A DNA stretch of 64,000 nt from Patescibacteria group bacterium (lineage in GTDB: Bacteria; Patescibacteriota; Patescibacteriia; SG8-24; DYFX01): positions 518,234 through 582,233 of the forward strand of contig JBAZZB010000001.1 of NCBI GenBank assembly GCA_041659045.1, read 5' to 3'. Under the pieces are notes generated by a model. It saw only the letters and a list, made by a program, of their open reading frames with translations. It did not search any database and was not told the origin of the DNA. The position numbers and the translations under genes were made by a program. This document shows positions 11,416-53,530 of the stretch, piece after piece (position 1 is the first letter of the stretch; every line of letters begins with the position of its first letter).

Positions 11416-13197
11416 TCAGTTTGGAAGCAGCAAAATTTCTTTTTGCTGCCAGTTGCTGTCCATGTCAACCGTCCCGACGTAATCCTGGTAACCGGCGCGC
11501 GATGCCATAACGTCATACGTGCCGGCTCCCAGGTTCGTGAACAAAACCTGACCGGGCGGCGTACAGGCCGATGTGTAGGTAAAACTTACGTCTGAGACAT
11601 TCGGCGTCGAGCTAGCATCTTCCGTAGAAAGAAACGCCTTGTACCGCATATAGCGGTTTCCGCTGTGGCTCGCGTGAATATTTGTGTTCGATGCCGCGTA
11701 ATACGTGGAAGACGTGCCGTCCGGACCGGTAAAAAGCCACGTGGCGTTGTCGTTATTGCTTGCGAGCTGAAATCTGAGGCTGTTTACGCCCGCTGCTGGA
11801 GGCTGATCGTTCGGCAACCATTGCATCTGGTAGAAGTTGCTGGTTGATCCCGTGTCAAAACTCGACGACTCAAGTTCGCCCGCGGCAACATAGCCGCTAC
11901 CCGGATCCTTCAAATGAAGGTCGCCGTTGGGATTCTGCGTCTCGAGGAAACCATCACTCGAAAAATACGCTGTCGGGTCGATAAAATCGGTTTGTCCGCT
12001 CGTACCCGACCAATCCGTCTGACGCATGAAGCCTCGGTTCGTGATGAGCGTCACGTCCGTGCCACCTTGCACCAACTGCACGGTCGTATCGGTTAACGGC
12101 AATTGCGTTGAAGCATCTTTTACGGTCACGAGCACACTGCGTGGCGCTTTCGCACTGACGATCAGCTGGAAATTTTGGTTGGTGTTCGGAGCAAGTGCGA
12201 GCGGCAGAAGCGGCACGGCACCGGCCAGATCGTAGCCAGCGTCAGTCAAAGACGCCTGATAGCTGTCCCACTCAAGCGTCGGCAGCGTCAACAATCCGGT
12301 TCCGTCCGTGGAAAAGGTGTTGGAGTACTTCAGTTGATCCGGCGTTGTGCCGTCGAGTTTTGAACCGACAAGCGAAAAATCAATGTTAGGAACCGGCGTG
12401 CAGGTATCAGTAACACTCGCAACATTCAGAGCGCTAACGCGATCAATCGCGAAACTCATCGCGGTCACCGATTGAAGCGCGACCGTTCCGTGCGGCTTGG
12501 CCGGATTCACGATCACGCTGTTTGGTGCATACGTTCGATCGGTTGAATAGCCGTCCTTCGTCACCGTCACGTAATACTGGTTGATACCCGGCGGCACGTC
12601 GACAAGCTGCAACAGGCCGGCCGCGTTGGTCACATCGTTGATCGTAAAAGACGGCGTCGCCGAGGCGTTTGTGACTGTGACGTTCGCGTCAGAAACCGGT
12701 TGCCCGTTAGCGTCAAGCGCTTGAATGAAGAGCGCGCCGTTCGTTGAAGATGTTTCAAGACTTTTCGGAGCAATCGTCGTCGTGAACGTCGTGGGAGAAT
12801 ACCCGATGCACCCATCGCAACTTACGACGAGTTCATACAGTTTGTAGTCGGCTGGTGACGTGTCGTTTGGCGAGCCTCCAAGCGTTCCATCAAAGATATC
12901 ATCAACATTACGAACCGTGCTCGTCAGTAAAAATACAATGCCGCTGCGAGTAACCGTCTGCTGATATGGGATTTTTCCAGGGGGAAGACCGCCGAGAATA
13001 CCGACGTTCACGTAGCTCATGTTTCTCGCGAATTCAAACTGTTCATTGGCCACGGCGGCGGCCATGACCTGAATGCGAGAAAGGCGTACCGCACGGTACG
13101 CGGCCGTCATCGCTTGATACAACGCCACCGTCACAAGCAAAAACACGGCCGTGCCGACGATCGTTTCAACAAGCGTAATGCCTCGGGGATGTCTCAT
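11416..13197 (-). CDS. Large prepilin-type N-terminal domain protein (593 aa pseudopilin-like)
   Basis: MRHPRGITLVETIVGTAVFLLV (G|ITLVE) followed by a long S/T/N-rich beta-rich domain. 4-nt overlap with the ATPase-like gene. Confidence 0.65.
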   Translation of the reverse strand: MRHPRGITLVETIVGTAVFLLVTVALYQAMTAAYRAVRLSRIQVMAAAVANEQFEFARNMSYVNVGILGGLPPGKIPYQQTVTRSGIVFLLTSTVRNVDDIFDGTLGGSPNDTSPADYKLYELVVSCDGCIGYSPTTFTTTIAPKSLETSSTNGALFIQALDANGQPVSDANVTVTNASATPSFTINDVTNAAGLLQLVDVPPGINQYYVTVTKDGYSTDRTYAPNSVIVNPAKPHGTVALQSVTAMSFAIDRVSALNVASVTDTCTPVPNIDFSLVGSKLDGTTPDQLKYSNTFSTDGTGLLTLPTLEWDSYQASLTDAGYDLAGAVPLLPLALAPNTNQNFQLIVSAKAPRSVLVTVKDASTQLPLTDTTVQLVQGGTDVTLITNRGFMRQTDWSGTSGQTDFIDPTAYFSSDGFLETQNPNGDLHLKDPGSGYVAAGELESSSFDTGSTSNFYQMQWLPNDQPPAAGVNSLRFQLASNNDNATWLFTGPDGTSSTYYAASNTNIHASHSGNRYMRYKAFLSTEDASSTPNVSDVSFTYTSACTPPGQVLFTNLGAGTYDVMASRAGYQDYVGTVDMDSNWQQKEILLLPN

Positions 13198-14321
13198 AGA
13201 CGCATGAGTTCTTCCGGCGCGATCGCACCGGAGAGGACCTTCCGCACCCCATCATCAAGCAGGGTTGACGGACGACGTTCGGGCACGAGCAAGTCTCTCC
13301 ATTCGAATACGGCGAGCTGTCCACGATGCCCCGTGTACCGGCAGCGGGCACATTTCGTGCCGCGCTCAAACGTTTGCGTTCTGTTCTTTTCAAACACGCG
13401 ACGCACGAGCGCGCGCGGCCAAATGACCGCCGCCTCTTCTCCTGTCATGGTATCGCGTCGACGGCAATCGGGACAGACGCGCCGCACCAAACGCTGAAGC
13501 AGCACCCCCGACAGGACGCGCGCTAGCATTTTCGGCTCAACACGCAGTTCAAGAAGCCTGTTCAAAGCGCCAGAAAGAGTTTTACCTTCAACGACAACGA
13601 TCACAAGCCGGTGTTCCGCTGCGGAAACCGCAAGAGCGGCGGACGTTTCCTCGCGCAACGAACCAAGACCAATAACGCTTGCGCCGCGCGCGATAGCCGC
13701 TCGCAGCAAAGACGAGGTTGTACGCCCAGCAACAGGGTCGACCATTTCCTGATCAACGCCATGCAGCTCGGCGAGCGACACCGTCTCAATCAGAGAGGTC
13801 TGCCTACGAAAAACATCGACTTCTTCTAAAAGCGCGTAGAGCGTCGTTGTGAGACCTGATCGTCGCGGTCCCGCGAGCAGCAGGAGTCCGGATGTTTTTT
13901 TCAAGCAACGCTCAAGCCCACCCCGTTGCACAGAGGAAAGTCCCAGATCCGCCAAACTCGGTCGTGGCGTACGGAAACGTACGACGACTTTTTCTCCTTC
14001 AAGTACCGGAACGACGGAGAGACGACTCTCCACCTCAACGCTGTCAACGACGCGTCGTAACGGATTTTCCTGGCAAGAAAAATCGGCGTCTTCGCGCAAA
14101 CGCGCGAGTATCTTCAGATGACGCACGAATCGCACGTGCGACTCCCTCGCTTGATGGAACCATTCGTGCAGCAAACCGTCGCGCCGAACACGCACGACCG
14201 CATCCTTCGCTGAAGGCTCTAAAATGAGTTCGGTGGCTCCGGAATCCGCAGCGTCACGCAAAAGCAGATCGACGGCATTGTCGATCTCAGTTTCTTTCAA
14301 AATGTGATGTGGTATCGGCAC
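13194..14321 (-). CDS. PilB/GspE-family ATPase homolog with degenerate catalytic motifs (predicted pseudo-ATPase)
   Basis: Walker A reads GPRRSGLTTTLYA (canonical GPTGSGKTTTLY); Lys to Leu, codon CTC at ~13852-13854. Asp-box and Walker B are degenerate (VIGLGSLRE instead of IMVGEIRD). Tetracysteine Zn motif CPDC...CARC is retained. N-terminal GspE N domains are absent. Confidence 0.7.
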   Translation of the reverse strand: MPIPHHILKETEIDNAVDLLLRDAADSGATELILEPSAKDAVVRVRRDGLLHEWFHQARESHVRFVRHLKILARLREDADFSCQENPLRRVVDSVEVESRLSVVPVLEGEKVVVRFRTPRPSLADLGLSSVQRGGLERCLKKTSGLLLLAGPRRSGLTTTLYALLEEVDVFRRQTSLIETVSLAELHGVDQEMVDPVAGRTTSSLLRAAIARGASVIGLGSLREETSAALAVSAAEHRLVIVVVEGKTLSGALNRLLELRVEPKMLARVLSGVLLQRLVRRVCPDCRRRDTMTGEEAAVIWPRALVRRVFEKNRTQTFERGTKCARCRYTGHRGQLAVFEWRDLLVPERRPSTLLDDGVRKVLSGAIAPEELMRL

Positions 14322-33397: not shown

Positions 33398-33552
33398 GCA
33401 AGAACTTCGCTAAGTATAGCGGAGTTTTTGCTATGGGACTCATGGAATCGAACTGCGTCTCCATCCCACATGTATCGCTTGACATAACGCCCCCCCCATC
33501 CAGCATGCTTGCGATGGCTCACCAACCAACCCGAGCCATTGGAGAGAGAAAA

Positions 33553-39649: not shown

Positions 39650-40972
39650 CTAGAAACCGAGCTTCGACGAAAGGTAGCTTTCGAGCTCGTCGATCTTCAC
39701 GCGTTCTTGCTGCATCGTATCGCGATCGCGCACGGTAACAGACTGGTCGTTCAAGGTGTCAAAGTCGTAGGTGACGCAATAGGGCGTGCCGATTTCGTCC
39801 TGGCGGCGGTAGCGCTTGCCGATGGATTGCGTTTCGTCGTAGTCGGTCGTCCAACGCTGACGGAGCTTGGCCGCGAGCGCGCGGGCTGGAACCGAAAGTT
39901 CCTCTTTTTTGGAAAGCGGCAGCATGGCGATCTTGAAGGGTGCGAGCGCTTTCGGGAAACGCATGACGACGCGCAGATCCGTCTCCCCTTCTTCGGCCGT
40001 ACGAGCTTGTTCTTCGTGATAGGCCTCGAGCATGACCACCAGCACCGTGCGATCGACACCGAGTGACGGCTCGATGACATGCGGCAGGTATTTTTCGTTT
40101 GTTTCCGGATCGGTGTAGCGCAAATCAACGCCGCTCTTTTCCTGGTGGCAGGTGAGGTCGTAGTCGCCGCGGTACGCGAGACCGTAGAGCTCCTTCAAAC
40201 CGAAGGGGTACTGGTACTCGACGTCGACGGTGCGCTTCGAATAGTGTGCGCGCTCGCCATCTTCGATTTCATGGAAGACGAGGTGCTTAGGATCGACTCC
40301 GCAGAAATCGAGCCAAGATTTCATTTCCACGAGCCACGATTCAAAATGCTTTTCCCATTCGGATTCCTTCACGAAGTACTCGACTTCCATCTGCTCGAAT
40401 TCGCGCGTGCGGAAGATGAAGTTGCCCGGCGTAATTTCGTTGCGGAAAGCCTTGCCGACCTGAGCGATACCGAACGGCACGCGCTTGCGGCTCGTTTCCT
40501 GCACCTGTTTGAAATCGGCAAACATCGCCTGCGCGGTTTCAGGACGGAAATAGACAACCGCCGCGGCGTCCTCTTTGGCGCCGAGGAAGGTTTTGAGCAT
40601 CATGTTGAACTGCGCCGGTTCCGTGAACGTGCCTTTCCTTCCACAAGTGGGGCAAGCGGCCGTGAGGTCGATTTGGTCGGCGCGGAAACGCGAATGGCAG
40701 CCGGTGCACTCCGTGAGCGGATCGGTGAAGTGGGCGAGATGGCCGGAGGCCTCCCAAACCTTCGGATTCATGATGAGCGCGGCATCAATGCCGACCATGT
40801 CTTCACGCGACGTCACGAAGCGCTTCCACCATGCGTCCTTAATGTTTTTCTTGAGCTCGGAACCGAGCGGACCGTAATCCCAGGAGTTGGCCAAGCCACC
40901 GTAAATGTCGGATCCAGGGAAAATGAAACCGCGTCGTTTTGCCAGGGAAACCAGTTTTTCCATTTCGATCAT
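39650..40972 (-). CDS. glyQS: Glycine--tRNA ligase, dimeric alpha2 type
   Basis: Class II aaRS motifs and N-terminal RRGFIFPGSDIYGGLANSWDYGPLG. C-terminal anticodon-binding domain. Start at ATG 40972 or 40963. Confidence 0.9.
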   Translation of the reverse strand: MIEMEKLVSLAKRRGFIFPGSDIYGGLANSWDYGPLGSELKKNIKDAWWKRFVTSREDMVGIDAALIMNPKVWEASGHLAHFTDPLTECTGCHSRFRADQIDLTAACPTCGRKGTFTEPAQFNMMLKTFLGAKEDAAAVVYFRPETAQAMFADFKQVQETSRKRVPFGIAQVGKAFRNEITPGNFIFRTREFEQMEVEYFVKESEWEKHFESWLVEMKSWLDFCGVDPKHLVFHEIEDGERAHYSKRTVDVEYQYPFGLKELYGLAYRGDYDLTCHQEKSGVDLRYTDPETNEKYLPHVIEPSLGVDRTVLVVMLEAYHEEQARTAEEGETDLRVVMRFPKALAPFKIAMLPLSKKEELSVPARALAAKLRQRWTTDYDETQSIGKRYRRQDEIGTPYCVTYDFDTLNDQSVTVRDRDTMQQERVKIDELESYLSSKLGF

Positions 40973-40985
40973 ATGCCGCAGCCTA

Positions 40986-43900
40986 TCATGAGGCAGTTTT
41001 GAGTTCAATATCGTCAGCAATGAAGACGGGCTCTTTCTCGTGGGTGAAATCAATCTCTTTCGTGCGTGCCGCTTGGTATCCCGCGCGATCAGCCGTCAGG
41101 AAATAGCGGTTCTGACCGGCCAGGAAGGCGTAGCGTCCGCGTGCATCGGTCACCTGGGCTTCAAGCACTTTCTTGTACGCGGATTCGACAATACGAACGA
41201 CCACTTGCTTCACGGGCTTCTTCTGCTCATCGGAAACCGTTCCCCAGCTCTTAGGACGCCGCCCTCTGGCCAGGCGCATGAAGAGAAGCATGAAGGCGAG
41301 CTGTGTCATGAGTGCAATCACCTGCTCCCAACGAGGCGTTGCGGCATAGCTTGCAAGCGCAAGTCCGGGACCGATCGACGCGACGGCCCATTGCACGCGC
41401 AAGCGCGAGGAAGCCGCGAGAATGTCGATGTCCGTGCGCGTTTCACCCACAGGTTCGAGCGGCACGTTTTTGGCGATCATACCTTCCGGAGTTTCGATCG
41501 GGCCACCAAGGTGCAGGTCAGAGAAGGGGCCGTCGGCCACGCCGCTGATCGTTCGGTTCGGAGGAAAGGCAAAACCGGGCTTCTGTACTTCAAGCAGGTA
41601 GCTGCCGGGCTGTGGCAAGAAAAGATAGCGACCATACCGATCGGTGACGCGCGTTGAAACCGTTTTTTGCGTGACAGGGTCGACAAGACGGACGACAGCA
41701 AGATCCACCGGCAGCTTCGTGCCGACGTTATAGATGGTGCCGTAAGCCTTGCGACGGCGACGATCGAGCAGCGCGAGCGGTTGCGTAAAGAGGAACATCG
41801 CGTATCGCGCGTAGCCGGCAAAGCCCACAGCCGAAGTCGTCGCGACTGCGACCGCCGCAGTTGTAGCTGGGGTCACGACAACGTCGTTCGTTGTTTGCGC
41901 CACTGCGCTTCCGCGAATGGCTTTCATATTGTCGCGTACCGATCGCGCGATAGCGCCGATGACAGGCGTGTTCTGTGTCGCCTCCGCGAGACGATCAAGA
42001 ATCGGCGTTGCCGTAACGGCGTTCAATGGTCGCGCGATCCATTCAAGCAACGTCAGTCTTGTCTCTGTTCCGCTCGTCGTCCCGCTTCCAGACGTCGGTA
42101 CCGTTGGCGGTGTCGTTCCGGTCGTCGGACGTTCGGGATCGGTTCCGACAGGTGTCGGTTGCTCGGTTGTCGGTGGCACCGTAGGCTCTGACGATACTGG
42201 AGGTGCCGGTGTCGTTCCTGGTGTGGGGGCTGTACTTGGCTCAACAGGTGCCGTCGGCTGAGCAACTACCGGAGGAACGGTCGGTACCGTCGGTGGCAGC
42301 GTAACGATCGGTTCCACAGGCGTTACGGGAAGTTGTACAACATCCGTCGTCTGTTCAGAAATCGTCGTCGAGAGCCCATCCGCGGTGATGACGGCGCGAT
42401 TAAAAAGCGACCTCGCGCCGGGTAACACCCGCACGTGCACGCTGACATACCGGCGCATGCTTGCGGCAAGAGAACCAAGATTGTATGTCGCGGTACGCGT
42501 CAACGAATCAAAAGCGGCGTCATCTGTATCGGCGAGGTCCGTCAGAATCACACCATCAATCGACAAAGATGATCCAACGTATGACGTGCCGGGTGGAATT
42601 GTTTCTGCTACCACAACATTTCGCGCGGTCTGGCCGCCGACGTTCGACACGTCAATACGATAGGTAACGATATCACCAGTCTTCGGTTCGGGCGTACCGC
42701 TCGAAAATTCCAAAGAAGACACGTTCACGCCGACGCGCACCTCAGCCAGTACAGCAGCATCCTCTGGCACAGTCGTAGGGGGTACAACGGGCGGCGTCGA
42801 TGTTGTTGAGCCCGGCGCTCCTGATCCGCTTTGCGCTATTGTGAACGAAGCATCGCTCACGTCCGTCGCCAAAATCGTGTCACCTCCAGCGAGGGCTTCA
42901 GCGCGAATGCGCGCGGAATCAGCGGCCACGCTCGGCACCATCCAGGCGTAGACGCCCGCGGAAGGACTCACATTCGAAGCAATCACCGCGTACGTACTCC
43001 CGTTATCTACGGAGTACGAGAGTCGGACGTTCTGCACCTGAATACCCTGCGTCGTGAAAAATACGTTATATGTCGATCCACCCGCGAGCAGTTCGCTGCC
43101 GTTCGGCTGGCCAACCACAATGGAAGGCGTCGGGTTACCACCGCCTCCGCCTCCTCCCCCACCACCTCCGCCTGAAGCCGTAATCGAAAAGTCTGCGTTC
43201 GCGGTATCGCTCGCAAGTGTTACGTTGTTCGCGTCTTGTGCCTCGATTTTGATGCGCGCTGTGGTCGTCGTGATGTTGTTGACCGTCCAGGAATACGGCG
43301 ATGCTGCGTCGGATGCAGTAACAAGCGTCGGGAACGTGGAGCCCGAGTCCGTAGAAAGCGTGATGCGGTAGTGATCAACCAAACCAGCATTCGTCCACGT
43401 GATCGACGAAGAATCGCCGCCCGTCAAACTTCCTCCGCCATTCGGTGCCGTCACGGTTACTGTCGCCGCACCGTCAGAATCGGCGATCATTTGCACGCGT
43501 GTTTGTGAAACCGTGTTGACGGACTGGAAAGCCGTCACAATACCAGCGTCACCATTGGAGACAGCCGTCGGAATATCTTCAGCAAAACCGGCGCGAGCCG
43601 CAACAACGATTCCGTTTGCGGTCCACATCGCCGTGCCAGTTGAGTTCAGACGTTGTGCGTACACGTCGCCACCAGCCTCCGTTCTTTCATCCTTCCAAGC
43701 CGCTACAACACCGGCGCTATTGTCTGTTGCAATACTGAATTGCGCCCCTTGGTTATCAGCAGCATTGCTCACGACCTCGCCGTTCGCTGTCCACTGCGCG
43801 ACGCCGGAAGCATCGAGTCGTTGCGCGTACAGATCGCTCGTGACGCCTCCGCGCATATCTTTCCACACCACGATCGACCCGGTATCCGAAGCGATGACTT

Positions 43901-46277
43901 TCGGCACGGTTTGATTATCTGCTGCAGTCACAACATCAACTCCGCCCGCAGTCCATTGCACGTCGCCGGCTTCGTTATACATTTGTGCCTTGACGTTGGC
44001 GTTTCCAAGACTGCCGGGATCCGCGCTCCAGGCGACGACGACTCCGCCCGAGACGGCCGTAAGAGCTGTTTCGATGGCGGTGTTTTCTGTCGTGATGACT
44101 TCGCCGTACGTTGTCCAACCGGAAACAACCGCTCCGTTTGCCGCTGCTAGGCGCACGACGCGTAAGTCGGGATCGGTCACGTCGTTATCGATGTGCTGCC
44201 AAGCGAGATACGCGCCGCTTGCGCCGTCAGAAGCGATCGCGCCATATTCATGAGCGACCGTACCGGAAGGCAGCGGATCAGATGCTTCAACTCCTGTTGC
44301 GCCCCACGGAACACCGGCCGCAGATGTCACGCGCACGCCATACATCCTGTTATTCACCTCATACATCACAATGGCGCCACCCGCTCCGTCCGTGACGGTA
44401 CCCCAGACATCGACCGTCGAGCCGGACGGTGAAATACTCAATCCTGATGCCGACCAGCCGCCGACCACGACCCCCGAAGAATCAAAACGTTTGATTTTCA
44501 AAACCTCGGAACCCATATAATCCTTCCAGATGACGTATACGCCACCTGAACCATCGCCTAACAAGCCAAGCACCTCTTGCCCGATACCGATCGCAATCGC
44601 CACGCCGCTCGCTGTCCACTGTGAGACACCTGAGGAGTTCACTTTTTGCAAAAAAACTCTCGTTCCGTTATGGCGGTTATCATTCCAAGCAAGAAAATAA
44701 TTTCCTGAACCATCGGCCGCCACGCGCGGCACGAGCTGCTCTGCCGTAACGGAGCCTGGTCCATCTGGAAGCGTGAAGCCGCGCGTACCGTTAAATTGCG
44801 GAGCGCCAGTCGCGTCATCAAGTAACTGGCCAACCGCGTCATCCTCAAAGCTCGCTTGGATCTGTGCCGCAATCACGAAGTCGCCTGCCGTTGTCGTGAC
44901 AGCATACGGCATCGTAATCGGGAAAAAGTTCGTGGCCGTATCCGCATCAATCGCGAGCACGCCACCGGACGTCCAAGCCACGGTACCGTCAGAATTGACG
45001 CGCTGGGCAATCACGTCGCGTGTGCTTGCACCCGAATATTGGCGCATAATGGCGATGAGCACGTCACCCGAACCATCACCCGCCGTCACCGCGATCGTAG
45101 GATAATCTTCACGATCGGCAGTACTCGTCAGCGCCAAACCAGAGCCGGAAAACTGGGCGACACCAGAGCTATTGAGTTTTTGTACGTACAAATACGGGTT
45201 GGCGTAGTAGAAGACCATCGCGTCGGTTCCACTCATCGCAACCTTGGGATTTGCATTGGCGTTTGCCGTGCTGACCTGGACACCATTCGCAGTCCAAACC
45301 TGGTCACCGGCACTATCGATCTGTTGGGCGTAAACACCGTTAGCGCCTGAACGACTATCTTCCCAAACCGCGACAAGGCCTCCGGAACCGTCCGGTACGG
45401 CCTGCGTCATGCGATCCTGTGCGTCGGCAGCCGACGTGATTGCTTTTCCGTTCGCTGTCCACTGCACCGTACCAGCGCTGTTAATACGTTGCGCGTATAA
45501 ATCTTCATCCGCGCCGCGGAGATCCTCCCACGCGATGATCGCGCCGCCGGAGCCGTCCGTAACGATGAGCGGATCGCGCTGGTTATTGGCGGCCGCGCTA
45601 ATGACCACACCGGTCGCAGTCCACTGTTTGGCGCCTAAACCATCCAAGCGCTGCGCGCGCACGTCGCCGCCGATCACGTACGCAACGATAATACCGTCGG
45701 AGCCGTCAGGAAGAGCGACCCCTGACGTTTCGGAACTCGCGCCAACATCAGCAACCGCCAACCCGCCCGCCGCCCATTGCACGGCGCCGGAAGAATCGAG
45801 TCTTTGCGCGTAAATGTCGTTGGCACCATTCGAAATACCGTAGAGCACAATGACGCCGCCTGAGGTATCTGCGACTACTCGCACGCGCTGATCACCGAGA
45901 CCACTTGCTCCATCGTAGACCGTGATGCCTCCGCCCCATTGCGCCGCGCCGGTGTCATCAACTTTTTGAGCGTAGATGCCGCCCCCGACCGCGTTCGTGA
46001 ACACGAAGACGCTATACCCATCGCTCGTGCGAACGACAGGGCCACTGGTTGATTGTTCAAAAATAACTGACTCTTGGTCGCCCGCAAGGAAACCGTTTGT
46101 GGCAGCAGCAGCAACAACACCGTTTGCCGTCCAACTTGCAGAGCCGCTCGCCAAAGCCGTTGAGACAACGTTACCGAAAACAATCGCCGTGATCAGAACC
46201 GTCACGGACGCAAAAACAAACCGAGCGCGCGCCCAAGCTTTTACCGCAATCCAAAGACGGTTTATTCGATACTTCAC
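40986..46277 (-). CDS. Giant cell-surface protein A (~1760 aa)
   Basis: Architecture from N- to C-terminus: signal peptide; ~13 tandem ~50-aa W/YAQR beta-propeller-like repeats; DUF11-like domain; two ~90-aa Ig-like (Kre9/KNH-like) domains; Gly12 tract; Pro/Thr-rich linker; C-terminal TM plus prealbumin/CarboxypepD_reg-like anchor module shared with gene B. Start uncertain (GTG ~46277); the ORF-track start at 46556 would overlap the upstream gene. Confidence 0.7.
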   Translation of the reverse strand: MKYRINRLWIAVKAWARARFVFASVTVLITAIVFGNVVSTALASGSASWTANGVVAAAATNGFLAGDQESVIFEQSTSGPVVRTSDGYSVFVFTNAVGGGIYAQKVDDTGAAQWGGGITVYDGASGLGDQRVRVVADTSGGVIVLYGISNGANDIYAQRLDSSGAVQWAAGGLAVADVGASSETSGVALPDGSDGIIVAYVIGGDVRAQRLDGLGAKQWTATGVVISAAANNQRDPLIVTDGSGGAIIAWEDLRGADEDLYAQRINSAGTVQWTANGKAITSAADAQDRMTQAVPDGSGGLVAVWEDSRSGANGVYAQQIDSAGDQVWTANGVQVSTANANANPKVAMSGTDAMVFYYANPYLYVQKLNSSGVAQFSGSGLALTSTADREDYPTIAVTAGDGSGDVLIAIMRQYSGASTRDVIAQRVNSDGTVAWTSGGVLAIDADTATNFFPITMPYAVTTTAGDFVIAAQIQASFEDDAVGQLLDDATGAPQFNGTRGFTLPDGPGSVTAEQLVPRVAADGSGNYFLAWNDNRHNGTRVFLQKVNSSGVSQWTASGVAIAIGIGQEVLGLLGDGSGGVYVIWKDYMGSEVLKIKRFDSSGVVVGGWSASGLSISPSGSTVDVWGTVTDGAGGAIVMYEVNNRMYGVRVTSAAGVPWGATGVEASDPLPSGTVAHEYGAIASDGASGAYLAWQHIDNDVTDPDLRVVRLAAANGAVVSGWTTYGEVITTENTAIETALTAVSGGVVVAWSADPGSLGNANVKAQMYNEAGDVQWTAGGVDVVTAADNQTVPKVIASDTGSIVVWKDMRGGVTSDLYAQRLDASGVAQWTANGEVVSNAADNQGAQFSIATDNSAGVVAAWKDERTEAGGDVYAQRLNSTGTAMWTANGIVVAARAGFAEDIPTAVSNGDAGIVTAFQSVNTVSQTRVQMIADSDGAATVTVTAPNGGGSLTGGDSSSITWTNAGLVDHYRITLSTDSGSTFPTLVTASDAASPYSWTVNNITTTTARIKIEAQDANNVTLASDTANADFSITASGGGGGGGGGGGGNPTPSIVVGQPNGSELLAGGSTYNVFFTTQGIQVQNVRLSYSVDNGSTYAVIASNVSPSAGVYAWMVPSVAADSARIRAEALAGGDTILATDVSDASFTIAQSGSGAPGSTTSTPPVVPPTTVPEDAAVLAEVRVGVNVSSLEFSSGTPEPKTGDIVTYRIDVSNVGGQTARNVVVAETIPPGTSYVGSSLSIDGVILTDLADTDDAAFDSLTRTATYNLGSLAASMRRYVSVHVRVLPGARSLFNRAVITADGLSTTISEQTTDVVQLPVTPVEPIVTLPPTVPTVPPVVAQPTAPVEPSTAPTPGTTPAPPVSSEPTVPPTTEQPTPVGTDPERPTTGTTPPTVPTSGSGTTSGTETRLTLLEWIARPLNAVTATPILDRLAEATQNTPVIGAIARSVRDNMKAIRGSAVAQTTNDVVVTPATTAAVAVATTSAVGFAGYARYAMFLFTQPLALLDRRRRKAYGTIYNVGTKLPVDLAVVRLVDPVTQKTVSTRVTDRYGRYLFLPQPGSYLLEVQKPGFAFPPNRTISGVADGPFSDLHLGGPIETPEGMIAKNVPLEPVGETRTDIDILAASSRLRVQWAVASIGPGLALASYAATPRWEQVIALMTQLAFMLLFMRLARGRRPKSWGTVSDEQKKPVKQVVVRIVESAYKKVLEAQVTDARGRYAFLAGQNRYFLTADRAGYQAARTKEIDFTHEKEPVFIADDIELKTAS
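43137..43172 (-). repeat. GGN trinucleotide tract encoding 12 consecutive Gly
   Basis: Protein GGGGGGGGGGGG between an Ig-like domain and the next domain; DNA is imperfect GGN repeats. Confidence 0.7.
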
Positions 46278-46347
46278 GCGTGTATACAGAGGTCTCTTCA
46301 CAGCATGCAGTGTACCACTTTTAGGCAAATCCTTCTTGTTCGAACCT

Positions 46348-47823
46348 CTACACCGACACCACCGTTTTAAGGGTGATATCTCGAGCAATAAAAGCCGGAT
46401 CCTTTGAACGGCTGAAATCCACCGTTTCTGTCCTGGCTGCCTGATGCCCCGCCCCCTCAGCCGTGACGAAGTATCGATTCTGTCCGACCAAGAAGGCATA
46501 GCGACCCGAAGCGTCCGTGACCTGAGCTTCCAACACCTTATTGTAGGCATCTTCAATCACGCGCACGACGGCTTGTCGCACGGGCTGCCCTTGCGCGTCG
46601 CGTACGACGCCCCACCCCTTCGGCTTTCGCTTGTTGGCGATGCGAGAGAAAATAACGGTCAGCGCCAGCTGAAGCGCCAGAGCACCTACCTGTTCCCAAC
46701 GCGGCGTAACGACATAACTTGCCACCGCGAAACCGGGGCCAAATGCCGTAAACGCCCATTGCAAACGGAGACGCCCTGCCGCGGCGATAATTTTGGAATT
46801 GGTACGCGAGTCCTCTTTCGGTTCAAGTGGGATGTTTTTCGCGATAACACCATCCGAAGCAACGACGCTTCCCCCAACATGCAGGTCCGCGTACGGACCA
46901 TCGGCCACACCAGAGATCGTACGCACTGGAGGGAAGACGAATCCGGACTTCTGCACTTCGATCTGGTACGCACCGGGAGGCGCGAGGAAGAGATACCGTC
47001 CGAGACGGTCCGTGACGCGCGTCGCGATTACTTTTTGTCCCGTCGCATCAAGAAGCCGAACCGTCGCAAGATCAACAGGGAGTTTGGTCCCGACGTTGTA
47101 GACAGTGCCGTATGCTTTTCTACGGCGACGATCGAGCAGAGCAAGCGGCTGCGTCACAAGGAACATCGCGTAACTGGCGAAACCCGTGAAACCAACTGCG
47201 GACGTTGTCGCGACAGCAGCCGCCCCAGCGACGGCCGGTGTCAGTACGACTGTGTTGGTTGTTTGCACCGTTTCATTCGTACGCAAAGCCTTCACGACTT
47301 CGCGTGTCGCCTGAACAACCTCACGCACAATAGGAATATTTTTTGTGACGTTTGCCGCGATGTCCAGAAGCGGCGTCTCTTCAAGAGGTGCTTCTTCGCG
47401 CACAAACCACTCAATCAACGAAAACGAAGCGATCTCCTGAGCCGGTGACGGCACGGAAATTTCGCCTTGCGGAGACGGCTCGACAGATCCGCCTCCAGAC
47501 GATCCACTTGCGCCGCTTCCTTGCCCACCACCACTTGATGCTGGTGGTTCCGTATCTATAGACGTAACCGGACGTTCCGGAGTCGGGCGCGGGGTCGGTT
47601 TCGTTACCGGCGGTTCTTCTTCCGCTTCATCGATCGGTGTTTCTGTCGAGGCTGGAGGCTCAACGACCGGTTCTTCTGGCGTTACCGGTTCAGATGGAGT
47701 TTCAGGAGGCGTTTCAATAGGCGGCGTTGGTTCGACAGGCACTGTTGGGTCCGGAGTTTCAACGGGCGGTTCGGTTGGTGGCAGCACCGGCGGCTCAACA
47801 CCTGTACCAACAATCGTAAACAC
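46348..47823 (-). CDS. C-terminal portion of giant surface protein B
   Basis: Pro-rich linker, TM and CarboxypepD_reg-like anchor module. Reading frame is separated from the upstream portion by a frameshift. Homologous residue-for-residue to the C-terminus of protein A. No signal peptide and no RBS of its own; its reading frame continues upstream to ~47925. Confidence 0.7.
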   Translation of the reverse strand: MFTIVGTGVEPPVLPPTEPPVETPDPTVPVEPTPPIETPPETPSEPVTPEEPVVEPPASTETPIDEAEEEPPVTKPTPRPTPERPVTSIDTEPPASSGGGQGSGASGSSGGGSVEPSPQGEISVPSPAQEIASFSLIEWFVREEAPLEETPLLDIAANVTKNIPIVREVVQATREVVKALRTNETVQTTNTVVLTPAVAGAAAVATTSAVGFTGFASYAMFLVTQPLALLDRRRRKAYGTVYNVGTKLPVDLATVRLLDATGQKVIATRVTDRLGRYLFLAPPGAYQIEVQKSGFVFPPVRTISGVADGPYADLHVGGSVVASDGVIAKNIPLEPKEDSRTNSKIIAAAGRLRLQWAFTAFGPGFAVASYVVTPRWEQVGALALQLALTVIFSRIANKRKPKGWGVVRDAQGQPVRQAVVRVIEDAYNKVLEAQVTDASGRYAFLVGQNRYFVTAEGAGHQAARTETVDFSRSKDPAFIARDITLKTVVSV

Positions 47824-47843
47824 ACTGTCACTTACGTCCGTTG

Positions 47844-50800
47844 CTAAAATACTATCTCCACCGCCAAGCCCCTCCGCTTTGAAAAGCGCGTTGGTTGAAG
47901 AAACGTTCGGAACTGTCCAAGCGTAAAACCCGCAGACGGACTTCCTGAAGACGTGACGACGTTATAGGCAGATCCTCCATCGGCGGAATACGACAAGCGA
48001 ATGTTGTGGATCTGTGTGCCTTGCGACGACCAGAAGACGTTATACGTTTCGTTGGCGTGCAGTTGCTCTCCCCCATTTGGACGACTCAACGCAATTGCGG
48101 GCGAAGGATTGGAGCCTGAACCGCCTGTCGATGGTGCCGTCGTCGTAATAGAAAAGTCGGCGTCAGAAGTATCGCTTGTCAAAACGGAATTGCCGCTATC
48201 AAGCGCCTCGACCTTGATACGAGCAAGCGACGTCGTTACGGAACTCACGGTCCAAGAATACGGGCTACCCGCGAGGTTGCTCGTCAAAACGGTCGGGAAC
48301 GTGGAGCCCGAGTCGGTGGAAAGCGAGACGCGGTAGTGATCAGCTGGCCCCGCGGACGTGAAGGTGACGGAATAGGGATCACCACCGGTGAGCGATTGGC
48401 CGCCGTTCGGAGCCGTTACCGCAACGATCGAAGTGGCAATAGAAAAGTCCGCGTTCGAGGTATCGCTCGCCAAGACGACGTTGCCACTATCGAGCGCTTC
48501 AACTTTAACGCGCGCCGTCGAGGTGTTGAGACTGTTCACCGTCCACGAATACGGACTGCCCGCCGTGCTGCTCGTGATACTTGTTGGAAACGTGGATCCA
48601 GAATCGGTCGAGAGCGAGATTCGATAATGATCGACGCTGCCTACGCCCGTGAACATGATTGAAGACGACGCGCCTCCAGTAAGGCTTTCGCCGCCGTTCG
48701 GCGACGTAACCGTCACGGTTGGAGGATTGTTGTAGCCATACACCGTTCCGGCGCTACCCGCGACCGCCGCACCCGTACCACCTTTCGCGCCGCCCGTGGC
48801 CGTGGAAGTTCCGGAGCCCGTGAGCGTCACGAAGTAGGCCGCGATGCGTCCACCACCACCGCCGCCGCCGCCGTTCGCAGTCGTGCCAGCACCCGTACCG
48901 CCATTGGCCGTGACGTTTGCGTTCAAAATAGCGTGGGTGACGTCATACCAAATCGAGCCGCCGGAGCCGCCGCCGCCAAGATCCGTGGTTCCAAGGCCGT
49001 TCGTACCGTTCGCCGAAAGCGTGCCATCTACAGTGAGCGTATCGGTCAAAACAATCTTGATCGCGCCGCCACCCGGCCCGCCTTCGGCAACCGCCGCACT
49101 CGTCGTATCGGTTCCACCCGCAGAACCGAGGTCGACAGGGGAAGTACTACTGCCGTACGTCGCACTGCCGCCTGCGGCGCCAGAAGACGAAGCGCCGCCC
49201 GCACCGCCATAGCCTCCGCCGCCGCCACCTGTCCCGTTATCCGTTCCTTGCGCGTATCCTTCGCTGCTGGAAAAACCTTTTCCAACAACACTCACGGAAC
49301 CGCCGGCTTGAATATCCAAACTCCCCGCCGAAATATTCAGCGAGGTGTGGTGTGCCGACGTGTTTGTCGCGCTGGTCACAAGGCCGCCAGAACGCACGGT
49401 AATCGTTCCAGACACCGTCAAACTTGTGGTCGATGAAGAGCTGACGTAGGAACCTCCAGCATCAACAACAAGCGAAGCGAGACCAGCCGTGAAGTTTGTG
49501 TTGCTCGATGTAAAAGATGCGTTCTTGATCGTCAGCGCGGTTGTCACGTCGAAAAGTCCAGAATGCACGACATTGAGACCATCGATGGTTTGCGTCGCAC
49601 GACCATTCAGCGTACCGCCGCTTTGAATCGTGAGTGATGGCATAACGGAACCTCCACCCAAGATCGTCGTGCCGCTCGCAAGCGTGAGCGAGGCGCCGGT
49701 AGGAATGCTGTAGTGCGCGCCGTTCTTGATCGTGATCGCATCAAAGGAAAGGCTGGACGCGGCTATTTGGGTTGTAAAAGCCGTGGATGCCTGGCTGCCG
49801 TTATCAACGACAAGGCTGCCATTTGTTTGCGCAGTCGACTTCGTGTAGACCGTGCCGGCGCCACCGACTTGTCCGCTATTCGCCTTCGCTCCACCTTGCG
49901 AAGTCTTCGTGATCGTCGAAGAATCCGTCGTGTAGTAGATAGCGATGCGGCCACCGCCGCCTCCGGCGCACGTACAGCTCGCATACGCGTTACCTCCATT
50001 GGCCGTGATCGTACCGTTACCAGAAAGCGTGTCGGCTTGCAGCCAGACCGAACCTCCGGCCGCGCCGCCACTGCTCACGGTCGCGCTCGTACCGTTCGCA
50101 CTCATCGTACCGGAATGAGACAGAGTTCCGGCTGTAACGATTCTCAACGCGCCGCCACCGTTGACCGTGGACCCCGTAGCGCCGGAACCAAGATCAGTCG
50201 GCTGTGTCACGGAACCATATGTACCGCCAGCGGTACCGCTGAAGGCAAGACCACCGTTACCGCCATAACCCGCGCCCGTCGATGTTGATCCACCACCAGG
50301 CGCGCCACTGCCGCTACTGGTACCATAACCCTTTCTACTGACATCAACCGATGCTCCTGAGGCAATCGTCACGGTTCCTGTTGCTGAAATATCGGCAATA
50401 TATGCGCGCGTCGCCGCGGTGTTCGTAGCATGCGTAATGACAGCGCCAGAGTTCGCTGTCAACGTGTTCAGATAGAAAACACCGAGGCCTCGCTGTTCGT
50501 ATTTGCTGCCGCTGCCAAACGTGAAATCTTCCGCACGTCCCGCTGTACCGCTCGAAAAGACAGCGCCTTCGGGATACGGAGCGTACATCGCGTTCACGAA
50601 CGTCGCAGTCGTCAACGTGCGCACATCGCCGTAGTGAACAAGGTTCAGCGCACTGAAGGCAAAGCTCGAACTCTGGAAGACGAACAAGCCGTCAACTGTG
50701 AGCGTGCCGGCCACCGTCCCGCCGCCGCCGGAAATCGATCCTGTAGAGGTCGCGTACGACAAATTCATTCCGGCGCTCACGCGGTAATTTCCTCCACCTT

Positions 50801-52814
50801 TCAGAACGATGGAATCGTAGACCTGCGGCCAAGCTGCCGATTGACTGCTTGCCGCGCCCGCGACGTTATTATTATCGAGCGTCAAATCGCCGAACGACTG
50901 GGCGTCGGATTTCATGTAGATCGTGCCGGCGCCGCCTTTTTCGTAGCCGCGGACGTTACTGCCGCGCGCTTGGCGCGTGAACGTCGGGGTTGTGCCTGCG
51001 TACTGCACGGCGATCATGCCACCGCCGCCGGAACCGGTGAGAGCCGAACTCGGAGCGCCACCATTCGCCGTAATTGTACCGCTACCGTTCACGGTACTGC
51101 CGGAAGCGTTGATCCAAACCGAGCCGCCCGCTCCACCAGCACCGTCCGTGCCGGTCGTAGGCACGTCACGAGCATCAGCACTGATTGTGCCGTCGACCAT
51201 GATCGTACCGCCTGAGTTCACGGAAAGCTTGATCGCTCCGCCGCCATACCCCGTTGGAGTGGCGCTCGTACCTGTTACATCTCCTCCACCCGAGCCGAGT
51301 TCAACTGGGCGTGTAACAGAGTCGTACGCGCGACCGCCGGTATATCCGGCATACGTCGGATCTCCAGATCCGCCGTCGCCGCCGTGCGCGCCGCCCCCAC
51401 CAATGCCGTCTGAACCCTTGCCCGGACCTTGCTTAGCCACGTATCCGCGTTCGGAGGCCGTAATGACGCCGCCGCTGCTCAGCGTGATCGTGCTCGTGGC
51501 GCTCACGTCAAAATGATGAAGCTTGCCACTTGCCGTCGTCGCGCTCGTGTTGGTCGCGTGCGTGATCGTACCACCGGAACTCACTGTCAGCGTATTCACG
51601 AACAATGTCGGAAGATTCTGGGTGACCAACCAACCGCCGGAACCGATCGTCAGGTCGTCGACACGATTACCCGCGCCGGAGGTGAACGTCGCCGTCGTCG
51701 TGTTCAGGGTGTACACGCCGTTTATAACCGTCACGTCCACCGTCGTTCCAATCGCACCTTCGTGCGTTACATTGATCCCGTTAAACGTGACCGCAGCCGT
51801 AGGACCGTTGAACGTGCCGTTGATAATCAAAACGGGTTGCGCACTACCGCCAGTTGTTATCGTGCCGGCTGCTGCGACGCTGAGCGTGTACCCTGCTGGA
51901 ATCACATACTCTGAACCCTTCCAAATCGTTACGTTGTCGTACGTCTGGCTCGCTGTTGTGACCTGCTGTGTATAGGCAACGTTAGACGATGTGTTGTTGT
52001 TATCAACGATCAAATCACCATTTGTCGCAGATGCCTGCTTGCGATAAATCGTACCGGCTCCGCCGTTTTCGCCTGTCACACCGTTCGTGCCGCCGTAGGC
52101 TTGAACGGGGCCTGTTGCCGAAAACGTCGTGTAGTAAAGAGCAACACGTCCACCACCACCGGAACCGGAAGACGTCACGTGGCTGTTTCCGCCATTTGCC
52201 GAAATCGTGCCGCCGCCCGTGATGGTCGCAGCATCAATCCAAATTGAACCACCCGCTCCACCGCCTGCCGAAGCAGAGCTGGCGGTATTTCCTCCAGCCG
52301 AAATGGTTCCGGCCACAACGACCGTGCCACCAGTCGCCACAAGCTTGATCGCGCCGCCTCCGGCCACGCCACCCAACGCACCGACACCATTTCCGCCACC
52401 GGAACCCAAGGTGACTGGAGCTGTCACTGAACCATAGGCCGTTCCGCCGAGCTGTCCCGTGGATGAGCTGCCGCCATTGCCGCCATGCCCACCACCAGCA
52501 AAACTTGCGCCAGCACCCGTACCAGCCGCCGCGCCGTATCCTTGACCCGTCGCCGTGAGGGTACCGTCGATGCGAAAATGATCAGCGTTGATAATGACTC
52601 CGGCACCACTACTGCTTTGTGCCGTCACCGTCACGCCGGGGTTCACCGTCAGCGTGCCGCCGAATGTATACGTACCGGCAGCGAATTCGCAGCTTACGGT
52701 CAAGACAACGTCCGTACCGCTTGAGGTGCACGCAGCCGCGTGCGCATGTTTCGGAAACGCGCTCGTGATTACGATCAGCGAAATCAAACCGATGACAAGC
52801 GGGCGCGTTTCCAT
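47844..52814 (-). CDS. N-terminal portion of giant surface protein B
   Basis: Signal peptide (AFPKHAHA|AAC). About six ~230-aa repeats with GGAI-type motifs (GGGAIKL, GGALRIV), suggesting a parallel beta-helix. Three Ig-like ~90-aa domains homologous to those of protein A. The frame ends 28 codons after the SPSAG position, where the paralog continues. Confidence 0.7.
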   Translation of the reverse strand: METRPLVIGLISLIVITSAFPKHAHAAACTSSGTDVVLTVSCEFAAGTYTFGGTLTVNPGVTVTAQSSSGAGVIINADHFRIDGTLTATGQGYGAAAGTGAGASFAGGGHGGNGGSSSTGQLGGTAYGSVTAPVTLGSGGGNGVGALGGVAGGGAIKLVATGGTVVVAGTISAGGNTASSASAGGGAGGSIWIDAATITGGGTISANGGNSHVTSSGSGGGGRVALYYTTFSATGPVQAYGGTNGVTGENGGAGTIYRKQASATNGDLIVDNNNTSSNVAYTQQVTTASQTYDNVTIWKGSEYVIPAGYTLSVAAAGTITTGGSAQPVLIINGTFNGPTAAVTFNGINVTHEGAIGTTVDVTVINGVYTLNTTTATFTSGAGNRVDDLTIGSGGWLVTQNLPTLFVNTLTVSSGGTITHATNTSATTASGKLHHFDVSATSTITLSSGGVITASERGYVAKQGPGKGSDGIGGGGAHGGDGGSGDPTYAGYTGGRAYDSVTRPVELGSGGGDVTGTSATPTGYGGGAIKLSVNSGGTIMVDGTISADARDVPTTGTDGAGGAGGSVWINASGSTVNGSGTITANGGAPSSALTGSGGGGMIAVQYAGTTPTFTRQARGSNVRGYEKGGAGTIYMKSDAQSFGDLTLDNNNVAGAASSQSAAWPQVYDSIVLKGGGNYRVSAGMNLSYATSTGSISGGGGTVAGTLTVDGLFVFQSSSFAFSALNLVHYGDVRTLTTATFVNAMYAPYPEGAVFSSGTAGRAEDFTFGSGSKYEQRGLGVFYLNTLTANSGAVITHATNTAATRAYIADISATGTVTIASGASVDVSRKGYGTSSGSGAPGGGSTSTGAGYGGNGGLAFSGTAGGTYGSVTQPTDLGSGATGSTVNGGGALRIVTAGTLSHSGTMSANGTSATVSSGGAAGGSVWLQADTLSGNGTITANGGNAYASCTCAGGGGGRIAIYYTTDSSTITKTSQGGAKANSGQVGGAGTVYTKSTAQTNGSLVVDNGSQASTAFTTQIAASSLSFDAITIKNGAHYSIPTGASLTLASGTTILGGGSVMPSLTIQSGGTLNGRATQTIDGLNVVHSGLFDVTTALTIKNASFTSSNTNFTAGLASLVVDAGGSYVSSSSTTSLTVSGTITVRSGGLVTSATNTSAHHTSLNISAGSLDIQAGGSVSVVGKGFSSSEGYAQGTDNGTGGGGGGYGGAGGASSSGAAGGSATYGSSTSPVDLGSAGGTDTTSAAVAEGGPGGGAIKIVLTDTLTVDGTLSANGTNGLGTTDLGGGGSGGSIWYDVTHAILNANVTANGGTGAGTTANGGGGGGGGRIAAYFVTLTGSGTSTATGGAKGGTGAAVAGSAGTVYGYNNPPTVTVTSPNGGESLTGGASSSIMFTGVGSVDHYRISLSTDSGSTFPTSITSSTAGSPYSWTVNSLNTSTARVKVEALDSGNVVLASDTSNADFSIATSIVAVTAPNGGQSLTGGDPYSVTFTSAGPADHYRVSLSTDSGSTFPTVLTSNLAGSPYSWTVSSVTTSLARIKVEALDSGNSVLTSDTSDADFSITTTAPSTGGSGSNPSPAIALSRPNGGEQLHANETYNVFWSSQGTQIHNIRLSYSADGGSAYNVVTSSGSPSAGFTLGQFRTFLQPTRFSKRRGLAVEIVF
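48080..48660 (-). repeat. Tandem ~270-nt DNA repeats encoding Ig-like domains
   Basis: Opposite-strand ORF translations at 48001-48336 and 48388-48627 are near-identical (...TVQEYGLPA.LLV..VGNVEPESVESE.R). A third copy lies in gene A at ~43200-43370. Confidence 0.6.
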
Positions 52815-52937
52815 TCTACGTACGGCTTTTTTAACTGAAGAAAAATAGCGCCGTGCCAGGCGTTTCAGAAGCCGAATTCGGTTGTTAACAAAAAGAGTGG
52901 ACAGAGAATTCCTTTGTAGAAAGTATACAACAAAAAA

Positions 52938-52966
52938 ACCCGCGGTTCAACGCGGATTTCTCGCCA
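52938..52966 (-). terminator. Rho-independent terminator after frr
   Basis: Minus strand: CCGCG-ttgaa-CCGCGGG followed by TTTTTTTG. Confidence 0.5.
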
Positions 52967-52975
52967 TGTGCAGCC

Positions 52976-53530
52976 TTAAATCGTCATGATTTCTTCCTCT
53001 TTTTCAGCGGCCATGTCGCGCACCTTGTCGTTCCAGAGTTTCACCGCTGCTTCGAGTGCTTCCTGAAGGCGGAAGCGATCGTCTTCAGAGATCTCTTTGG
53101 CCTTCTCCAAACGATTCAATTCATCCTTGATCGTTTCGCGCACGGCGCGCAAACCGATGTGAGCCTCTTCCGCTTTTTTACCGACGATCTTCGTCAGTTC
53201 GCGGCGGCTTTCTTCAGTAAGAGGCGGCAACGTGACGCGCACGCGTGTGCCGTCGACAACAGGGTTCACGCCGATCGGCGCCTGGCGAATCGCCTTTTCA
53301 ATATCCTTGGTGAGTGCTTTGTCCCACGGCTCGATCATGATCGTTTTCGCGTCGGGCACAAGCACAGAGGCGACGCCTTTGACGTTCATTGTTCCGCCGT
53401 AGGCCTCGACCAAAATATCTTCAACCAACGCGGCGTGCGCGCGGCCGGTACGAAGGCTGCTCAAGTCGGCTCTCAAAAATTCAAGCACGTGCTCAAACTC
53501 GGGTCTGTATTCATCAATCAGTGTTTTCAT
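52976..53530 (-). CDS. frr: Ribosome recycling factor
   Basis: Full-length RRF similarity, 184 aa. Confidence 0.9.
   Translation of the reverse strand: MKTLIDEYRPEFEHVLEFLRADLSSLRTGRAHAALVEDILVEAYGGTMNVKGVASVLVPDAKTIMIEPWDKALTKDIEKAIRQAPIGVNPVVDGTRVRVTLPPLTEESRRELTKIVGKKAEEAHIGLRAVRETIKDELNRLEKAKEISEDDRFRLQEALEAAVKLWNDKVRDMAAEKEEEIMTI

Follow-up and report, generated by a model that had tools for sequence, protein, structure and literature searches.

Why does a gene for a giant surface protein appear as two open reading frames (ORFs) in different frames, and was the base that would join them lost in the cells or only in the assembly? We addressed this question in a stretch of 64,000 nucleotides (nt) from an uncultured Patescibacteria group bacterium (hereafter the window; contig JBAZZB010000001.1 of assembly GCA_041659045.1, positions 518,234 to 582,233), the minus strand of which carries an ORF of 1656 amino acids (aa) at 47844..52814 followed by a 491-aa ORF at 46348..47823 with a GTG start. 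The two ORFs are parts of one gene, with the 491-aa ORF in the −1 frame relative to the 1656-aa ORF, and they are collinear with single homologous proteins, in line with the original prediction made from this DNA, which had taken them as halves of one gene. We favour, with a probability of roughly 0.55, a real and very recent deletion of 1 nt, fixed or polymorphic, that would leave a secreted passenger without its anchor. The features around the split are as follows.

47844..52814, minus strand: the upstream ORF as it stands, 1656 aa and a TAG stop, which covers the signal peptide and passenger, two whole Ig-like domains (1 and 2), the initial ~60% of the third and 27 out-of-frame codons; the Joint Genome Institute (JGI) annotates an identical 1656-aa gene.
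47925..47931, minus strand: the frameshift site, GGGTTTT on the coding strand and AAAACCC on the plus strand, one base short compared with the orthologs; its 0 frame is G_GGT_TTT.
47844..47924, minus strand: the tail read out of frame, comprising 26 of the 27 unrelated codons that follow Gly-1629, and then TAG; codon 1 (Phe TTT, 47925-47927) lies inside the site.
46348..47928, minus strand: the −1-frame continuation, encoding the rest of Ig-like domain 3, a Pro/Thr-rich linker and the membrane anchor; the 491-aa ORF is the portion from the first start codon (GTG 47823) and begins within the Ig-like domain.

The coding strand at the junction reads tct gcg ggt ttt acg ctt. A 1-nt deficit was located at the G3T4 tract at 47931-47925 (GCG GG·TTT TAC), approximately 60% of the way into the third Ig-like domain, in agreement with the predicted single-nucleotide indel at a short homopolymer. 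In the 0 frame the protein runs to ...VVTSSGSPSAG and then through 27 unrelated codons (FTLGQFRTFLQPTRFSKRRGLAVEIVF; the earlier count was 28) to a TAG at 47846-47844, the tail of the truncated product ending in ...SPSAGFTLGQFR. The −1 frame stays open beyond the annotated GTG (47823) in the upstream direction, and from 47927 it encodes FYAWTVPNVSSTNALFKAEGLGGGDSILATDVSDSVFTIVG... Insertion of one base at G3T4 gave a single 2155-aa ORF, the product of which reads ...SAGFYAWTV... across the junction and contains the spanning peptide SPSAGFYAWTVPNVSSTNALFK. The original prediction held that TTTTT was needed here, which is one possible repair and not the sole one, as a third base of the Gly codon or an extra G would also fit: GGGTTTTT, GGGGTTTT or GGGNTTTT are candidate intact 8-nt forms of the site, and the change could have been T5 to T4, G4 to G3 or deletion of the third Gly-codon position outside any repeat. 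That the lost base was a T does not follow from the homologous codons, which are GGA TTT TAT and GGT TAC TAT in two orthologs (L002 and L005, described below) and GGC GTC TAC in the paralog encoded beside the split gene. Within the gene itself, both earlier Ig-like repeats can be aligned with the reading in the −1 frame (AGSPYSWTVNSLNTSTARVKVEALDSGN... vs SAGFYAWTVPNVSSTNALFKAEGLGGGD...; SPYSWTV... vs GFYAWTV...), and the −1 frame is therefore the authentic continuation, independently of other homologs. The same frame had been said to match the neighbouring protein residue for residue, and the identity in the quoted stretch is in fact ~62%.

Two relatives are informative at the site, L002 (JGI 3300045502, from a different metagenome, ~82% nt identity) and L005 (CP129476.1, a complete 1.17-Mb Patescibacteria genome). 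L002 runs in one frame through the site (...SPSAGFYTWTVPNISS... / ...SYSADGGSAYNVVTSSGSPSAGFYTWTVPNISSSNALFKAEGLGGGESVLATDVSDGVFTIIG...), where its DNA is TCC GCT GGA TTT TAT ACG TGG, and the 41 residues right after the shift show 83% identity to it. In L005 the gene is a single 2105-aa ORF with the DNA TCG AGC GGT TAC TAT GCG TGG at the site (protein ...SSGYYAWAVP...), and its product is 76% identical to aa 1-1556 of the repaired protein and 63% identical to what follows. Homology at this level is well in excess of chance. The surroundings of the gene are also shared with L005, namely GT4, pol III delta', BNR and RRF upstream, and glycyl-tRNA synthetase (GlyRS), M16 peptidase, TIM and TPR downstream. 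When the anchors were clustered, the split gene, L002 and L005 formed one group (80-88% identity), and the paralog, L003 and L004 another (68-76%); the split gene thus has its true orthologs in L002 and L005. Since both orthologs read straight through the site, the split is lineage-specific, and on the sequences compared the two-ORF state belongs to this lineage and is not a conserved design. Orthologs with the same two ORFs had been named as a finding that would speak against the original prediction; the comparison was run and no such arrangement was found, L002 and L005 both being in frame.

Two candidates were rejected in the course of this comparison. An apparent two-ORF arrangement in L002 was considered as a conserved split, and its ORF break, further downstream, proved to be ten N, a scaffold gap; the downstream gene in L002 was considered as a paralog and turned out to be GlyRS. 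A homolog query with the anchor alone gave 12 matches, among which only P0122/L002 was informative at the site. L003 and L004 were uninformative, as they begin downstream of the site at contig ends and are of the paralog (B) type, and a junction-spanning query was swamped by the widespread KNH Ig-like domain. No match longer than ~1400 aa was returned by the homolog searches, and giant proteins seem to be missing from the index, which biases the results towards fragments. The 1656-aa product was not found by exact look-up and the 1763-aa paralog was not among the homolog matches, though both are called genes on the contig.

The repaired 2155-aa protein has the make-up of an anchored giant surface (adhesin-like) protein, beginning with a signal peptide and ending in a membrane anchor, with a repetitive passenger and Ig-like domains in between, arranged as follows (residue numbers are those of the repaired protein).

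52734..52814, minus strand: N-terminal signal peptide METRPLVIGLISLIVITSAFPKHAHAAAC, with a hydrophobic core at aa 3-24 in a hydropathy scan; a putative Sec signal.
48726..52733, minus strand: Gly-rich passenger, ~aa 28-1363 (~1340 aa), with about four repeats of ~370 aa, predicted to be all-beta.
47809..48725, minus strand: three Kre9_KNH/Big_7-type Ig-like domains, aa 1364-1461, 1462-1568 and 1569-1669 (Pfam PF10342 and PF17957), the third broken by the frameshift.
47422..47808, minus strand: Pro/Thr/Glu-rich low-complexity linker, aa 1670-1798; its ratio of non-synonymous to synonymous substitution rates (dN/dS) vs L002 is 0.33.
46348..47421, minus strand: C-terminal anchor module, aa 1799-2155, defined by Pfam, hydropathy, a 13-sequence alignment, an AlphaFold2 (AF2) model and Foldseek.

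In keeping with a consequence raised in the original prediction, the shift separates the signal-peptide-bearing passenger from the C-terminal transmembrane anchor. The passenger repeats are 38-46% identical to one another at ~370-aa offsets. The AF2 model of the passenger was all-beta and of low confidence (predicted local distance difference test score, pLDDT, 64; predicted template-modelling score, pTM, 0.72), and a fold search with it gave no significant match, the top ones being the Ag43 and tailspike beta-helices at E>=0.087 (Ag43 E=0.087). No Pfam match and no PDB sequence match was obtained for the passenger, and PDB sequence searches with both halves of the gene likewise gave no matches. 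The passenger may fold as a beta-solenoid.

The anchor consists, in order, of hydrophobic helices, RRRRK, a transthyretin-like CarboxypepD_reg/SdrD_B beta-sandwich, a helical hairpin, KRKPK and a second beta-sandwich. Pfam matched PF13620/PF17210 alongside transmembrane helices, the AF2 model had a pLDDT of 73 overall with the sandwich domains mostly at 80-94, and Foldseek matched the SdrD B domain (E=1e-7) and the transthyretin-like (TTL) domain of carboxypeptidase D (~1e-5). The same module is found at the C-terminus of 400-650-aa proteins from other Patescibacteria-like contigs, and the N-termini of these proteins differ widely. With its transmembrane helices alternating with two transthyretin-like domains, and its many passengers, it may merit study as a surface-anchoring device of Patescibacteria. 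Elsewhere in the window (11416-14321, minus strand), a further CarboxypepD_reg-containing protein of 593 aa is encoded directly downstream of a T2SSE/PilB-type secretion ATPase gene.

We propose that the locus derives from one gene for a ~2155-aa surface protein comprising the signal peptide, passenger, three Ig-like domains, Pro/Thr-rich linker and anchor, and that an ancestral GCG GGN TTT TAC would have lost one nucleotide in this lineage, at the G3T4 stretch. Translation would then continue for 27 codons out of frame to the stop and yield a 1656-aa secreted passenger without the anchor, and the exported product would end in a broken Ig-like domain and a 27-residue basic tail. The linker and anchor region, left without a natural start, would be silent or perhaps weakly made through reinitiation at GTG 47823. 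The mutation would be carried by the dominant genotype of the sampled population, and the gene would be an incipient pseudogene or a truncated allele. Such a truncation might be tolerated thanks to the other giant gene just downstream, whose anchor is related and which may relax selection, a speculative suggestion.

An error, a recent pseudogenization and a phase-variable switch had all been offered as explanations; the first two remain live, whereas the switch found no support in a tract that is short and unconserved. If the split were an assembly or sequencing artefact, the cells would hold an intact 2155-aa gene and the consensus would have lost one base in a G3T4/T5 stretch. This is the weightiest of the alternatives, and we consider it less likely than a real deletion. 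It fits with the intact orthologs, with the conservation of the gene in relatives (dN/dS, or omega, ~0.07-0.10) and with purifying selection that is as strong downstream of the shift as upstream: dN/dS vs L002 was 0.079 upstream (passenger) and 0.071 downstream (anchor), with a proportion of synonymous differences (pS) of ~0.5 in both, and the 1578 nt downstream of the shift contained no secondary lesion or extra stop. It fits also with the existence of just one assembly of the population, as the NCBI metagenome-assembled genome is the same contig as the 646,312-bp source contig, Ga0376277_0000066 of JGI metagenome 3300037810, on which the frameshift site lies at ~566158-566164. That sample (SRA SRS12485771) came from groundwater well GW1 at a Southern Ontario landfill in 2017 and was sequenced through a JGI grant; the workflow for it was a short-read one (bbduk, sickle, SPAdes -meta and Bowtie2; 10.1101/2024.05.30.596742), and samples collected there in 2016 (GW1: SRS2844136) were sequenced as Illumina HiSeq 2x150 (PMC9723747). 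Against an artefact, consensus indels at runs of 4-5 nt are rare in a workflow of this Illumina type. No other frameshift was evident in the 64 kb, where ~33 other domain-bearing genes gave full-length Pfam domain matches, and the syntenic neighbours agree with CP129476.1 gene for gene. The window holds 701 homopolymers of 4 nt or longer (457 of 4 nt, 187 of 5, 41 of 6, 13 of 7 and 3 of 8). None of the 244 runs of 5-8 nt is visibly affected, and the 57 runs of at least 6 nt (16 of them 7-8 nt), which are likelier targets of error, lie in or beside apparently intact genes. Taken together, this indirect evidence favours a real lesion; a homopolymer-prone platform would affect long runs first, and the sole lesion here is at 3+4 nt. 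If real, the lesion is young relative to the synonymous divergence (dS) of ~0.9, because there is no downstream decay; the marks of an old pseudogene, relaxed constraint and secondary lesions downstream, were not seen. Several points weigh against a real deletion. The absence of downstream decay, together with strong purifying selection in relatives, is also the pattern that an artefact is expected to leave. No independent assembly of the same population was found by exact protein look-ups, two homolog searches or two metagenome scans, one by protein patterns and one by the exact DNA of the site with 0 or 1 bases added. For the 2017 GW1 library, the platform is deduced from the published workflow descriptions. 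Lastly, redundancy from the neighbouring gene is speculative, and the passengers of the two genes are unrelated.

The remaining explanations keep the sequence as it stands and give the split a function. Least credible of all is a genuine two-gene arrangement, in which separate passenger and anchor proteins are made and the latter is initiated independently at GTG 47823. JGI and NCBI do annotate two genes, the anchor module is also borne by shorter proteins with other N-termini, and the GTG lies 20 nt past the upstream stop, where termination-reinitiation would be conceivable; however, homology reaches 35 codons upstream of the GTG in the −1 frame, right up to the shift, whether the comparison is with the orthologs, the paralog or the Ig-like repeats of the gene itself, the break falls inside an Ig-like domain, and the orthologs are single ORFs. 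A Shine-Dalgarno (SD) test for an independent start of the 491-aa ORF was uninformative, as most of 18 start regions were without the motif. Giant surface proteins are often phase-variable in other bacteria, and a slipped-strand switch at the homopolymer, turning the protein on and off or uncoupling it from its anchor, would suit a giant surface-protein gene that is broken in short homopolymers and perfectly preserved downstream. Known contingency tracts, however, are typically at least 7-8 nt long, and the tract here is just G3T4, a 4-nt run that is not hypermutable and is one of 457 such runs in the window. It is not conserved in the orthologs (GGATTTTAT in L002 and GGTTACTAT in L005), and Tandem Repeats Finder detected no tandem repeats in 40900-53000. 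The switch put forward in the original prediction is thus left with a short tract, indistinct among hundreds and absent from the orthologs, and we consider it highly improbable. Equally improbable, in our judgement, is translational rescue by −1 ribosomal frameshifting, which would yield mostly the anchorless protein, with a lesser amount of the full-length, anchored form. The case for it is that a canonical X_XXY_YYZ heptamer, G_GGU_UUU, which the original prediction did not mention, stands in the 0 frame exactly at the junction (47931-47925), that slippage at this point would give ...SAGFYAWTV..., the very sequence of the repaired protein, and that such in-frame heptamers are rare here (1.4 per 1000 codons, with 2 in the 1656-aa ORF). 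There is also an AGGAAG 9 nt upstream of the heptamer, a spacing similar to that of the SD-like stimulator of dnaX. 'Savior' frameshifting of indels has been recognized as a concept (PMC5009743). On the other side, no downstream stimulatory structure rose above shuffled controls (folding z-scores 0.02, 0.20, −0.61 and 0.88), and the lone hairpin in the vicinity (−6 kcal/mol) directly adjoins the heptamer, leaving no spacer. Unstimulated heptamers yield little frameshifting in E. coli, merely 2-10x over a background of 0.055% (PMC4066793). The arrangement is not conserved, L002 (T_GGA_TTT) and L005 being in frame, and such a heptamer is what an indel in neighbouring runs of G and T that encode Ala-Gly-Phe would be expected to leave; it is probably incidental. 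The AGGAAG encodes a conserved Ser-Gly-Ser (GGGAAG in L002), and SD motifs are rare among the gene starts examined here. Leaky rescue well under 1% is conceivable. A broader version, dual decoding, is very doubtful too, if marginally less so: the deletion would have created or retained a perfectly placed heptamer, standard reading would release the 1656-aa passenger, and an occasional −1 slip or a T4/T5 subpopulation would supply the anchored 2155-aa form, in which case the ratio of shed to anchored surface protein would be tuned in an episymbiotic Patescibacteria cell.

Two observations elsewhere in the window touch on these subjects. A C8 tract at 33490-33497 (plus strand), the longest G/C homopolymer in the window, lies just after tRNA-Trp, and a gene without known function has its probable start (MQKHGSFHLLTLILFLGGC, lipobox-like) ~55 nt downstream of the tract, which is a better candidate than G3T4 for slippage-dependent expression. 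Of the 18 gene starts that were examined, most had no SD motif within 25 nt, the few SD-bearing ones including T2SSE (GGAAGGAGG), TPR708 (GGGAGG) and PBP1 (GAGGGGG). Prediction of starts from ribosome-binding sites is therefore weak in this genome.

Directly downstream of the split gene lies the second giant gene.

40986..46277, minus strand: neighbouring 1763-aa gene, with the passenger motif '...YAQR(L/I)(D/N)S.G..QWTA.G', Ig-like domains, a linker, DUF11 and a B-type anchor.

The original prediction had regarded the split gene as a paralog of this neighbour. This is true of the C-terminal third, that is, the Ig-like domains, Pro/Thr linker and anchor, over which the repaired protein and the C-terminal part of the neighbour share 62% identity (354 aa, E=7e-135); it does not hold for the passengers of ~1360 aa, which are unrelated. 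In comparison with L002 and CP129476.1, only the genome of the window has the B-type gene between the split gene and GlyRS. In both L002 and L005 the A-type gene is directly followed by GlyRS, and the L002 sequence between this stop codon and the start of GlyRS is almost the same as that after the B-type gene of the window. A GlyRS fragment (window 40511-40972, minus strand, vs L002:4695-5156) was 100% identical at the amino acid level and 95% at the nucleotide level, and all of its differences fell at third codon positions, which are 86% identical. The giant gene (window 46348-51412 vs L002:4-4659) was just ~82% identical at the nucleotide level, with pS ~0.5 and dS 0.84-0.93. The surface gene is thus far more diverged than GlyRS even at synonymous sites, which hints, from sequence divergence, at allele replacement or recombination at the locus. 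The stalk also varies in copy number, as the split gene has, at 48111-48725 (minus strand), one KNH-type Ig-like repeat (~100 aa) more than the L002 ortholog. In the B-type gene, an imperfect (GGN)12 run at 43137-43172 (minus strand) encodes twelve consecutive Gly residues within the linker between Ig-like domains; the counterpart of this spot in the split gene is STGGSGSNPSP.

In annotation, the 1656-aa and 491-aa 'genes' of JGI and NCBI are best merged into a single frameshifted gene, and the 491-aa 'carboxypeptidase regulatory-like' entry does not represent a protein in its own right. Should the lesion be real, the locus would capture a strongly conserved giant surface protein very shortly after it was inactivated or truncated, in an ultra-small bacterium that depends on a host. 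It would also fit with rapid turnover of the locus, given a second giant gene inserted in this lineage only, the varying number of Ig-like repeats and the high synonymous divergence relative to GlyRS.

In its domain make-up, the protein resembles Gram-positive-type stalk proteins with CnaB, SdrD-B or transthyretin-like domains and Ag43-like beta-helix adhesins, with which it shares a signal peptide, a repetitive all-beta passenger, Ig-like domains, a low-complexity linker and transthyretin/CnaB-like beta-sandwiches. It differs from them in having no LPXTG sortase signal and no autotransporter beta-barrel, in a passenger without a significant sequence or fold match, and in an unusual apparent anchor of transmembrane helices alternating with two beta-sandwiches. 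As in the contingency loci of Neisseria, Haemophilus and Campylobacter, a surface gene is interrupted at a mononucleotide run, but here the tract is of 3+4 nt rather than at least 7-8 nt, is unconserved and is one among hundreds. With the programmed −1 frameshifting of dnaX and the IS3 family, the locus has in common a canonical heptamer at the junction and an SD-like AGGAAG ~9 nt upstream; it differs in that no hairpin or pseudoknot above chance lies downstream and in that the arrangement is unconserved in orthologs, and any use of it here would be 'repair' of a lesion rather than a conserved two-product design. What we describe is nothing unusual in kind: a giant surface-protein gene with a lineage-specific frameshift of a single base. 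Compared with other frameshift-disrupted bacterial genes, among them large surface and adhesin genes, it differs in that there is no downstream decay yet (dN/dS 0.071), so that it is either very young or not real. It resembles them in the single-base indel in a short homopolymer, in the adjacent ORFs that are collinear with one ortholog, and in the orthologs that are intact in its relatives.

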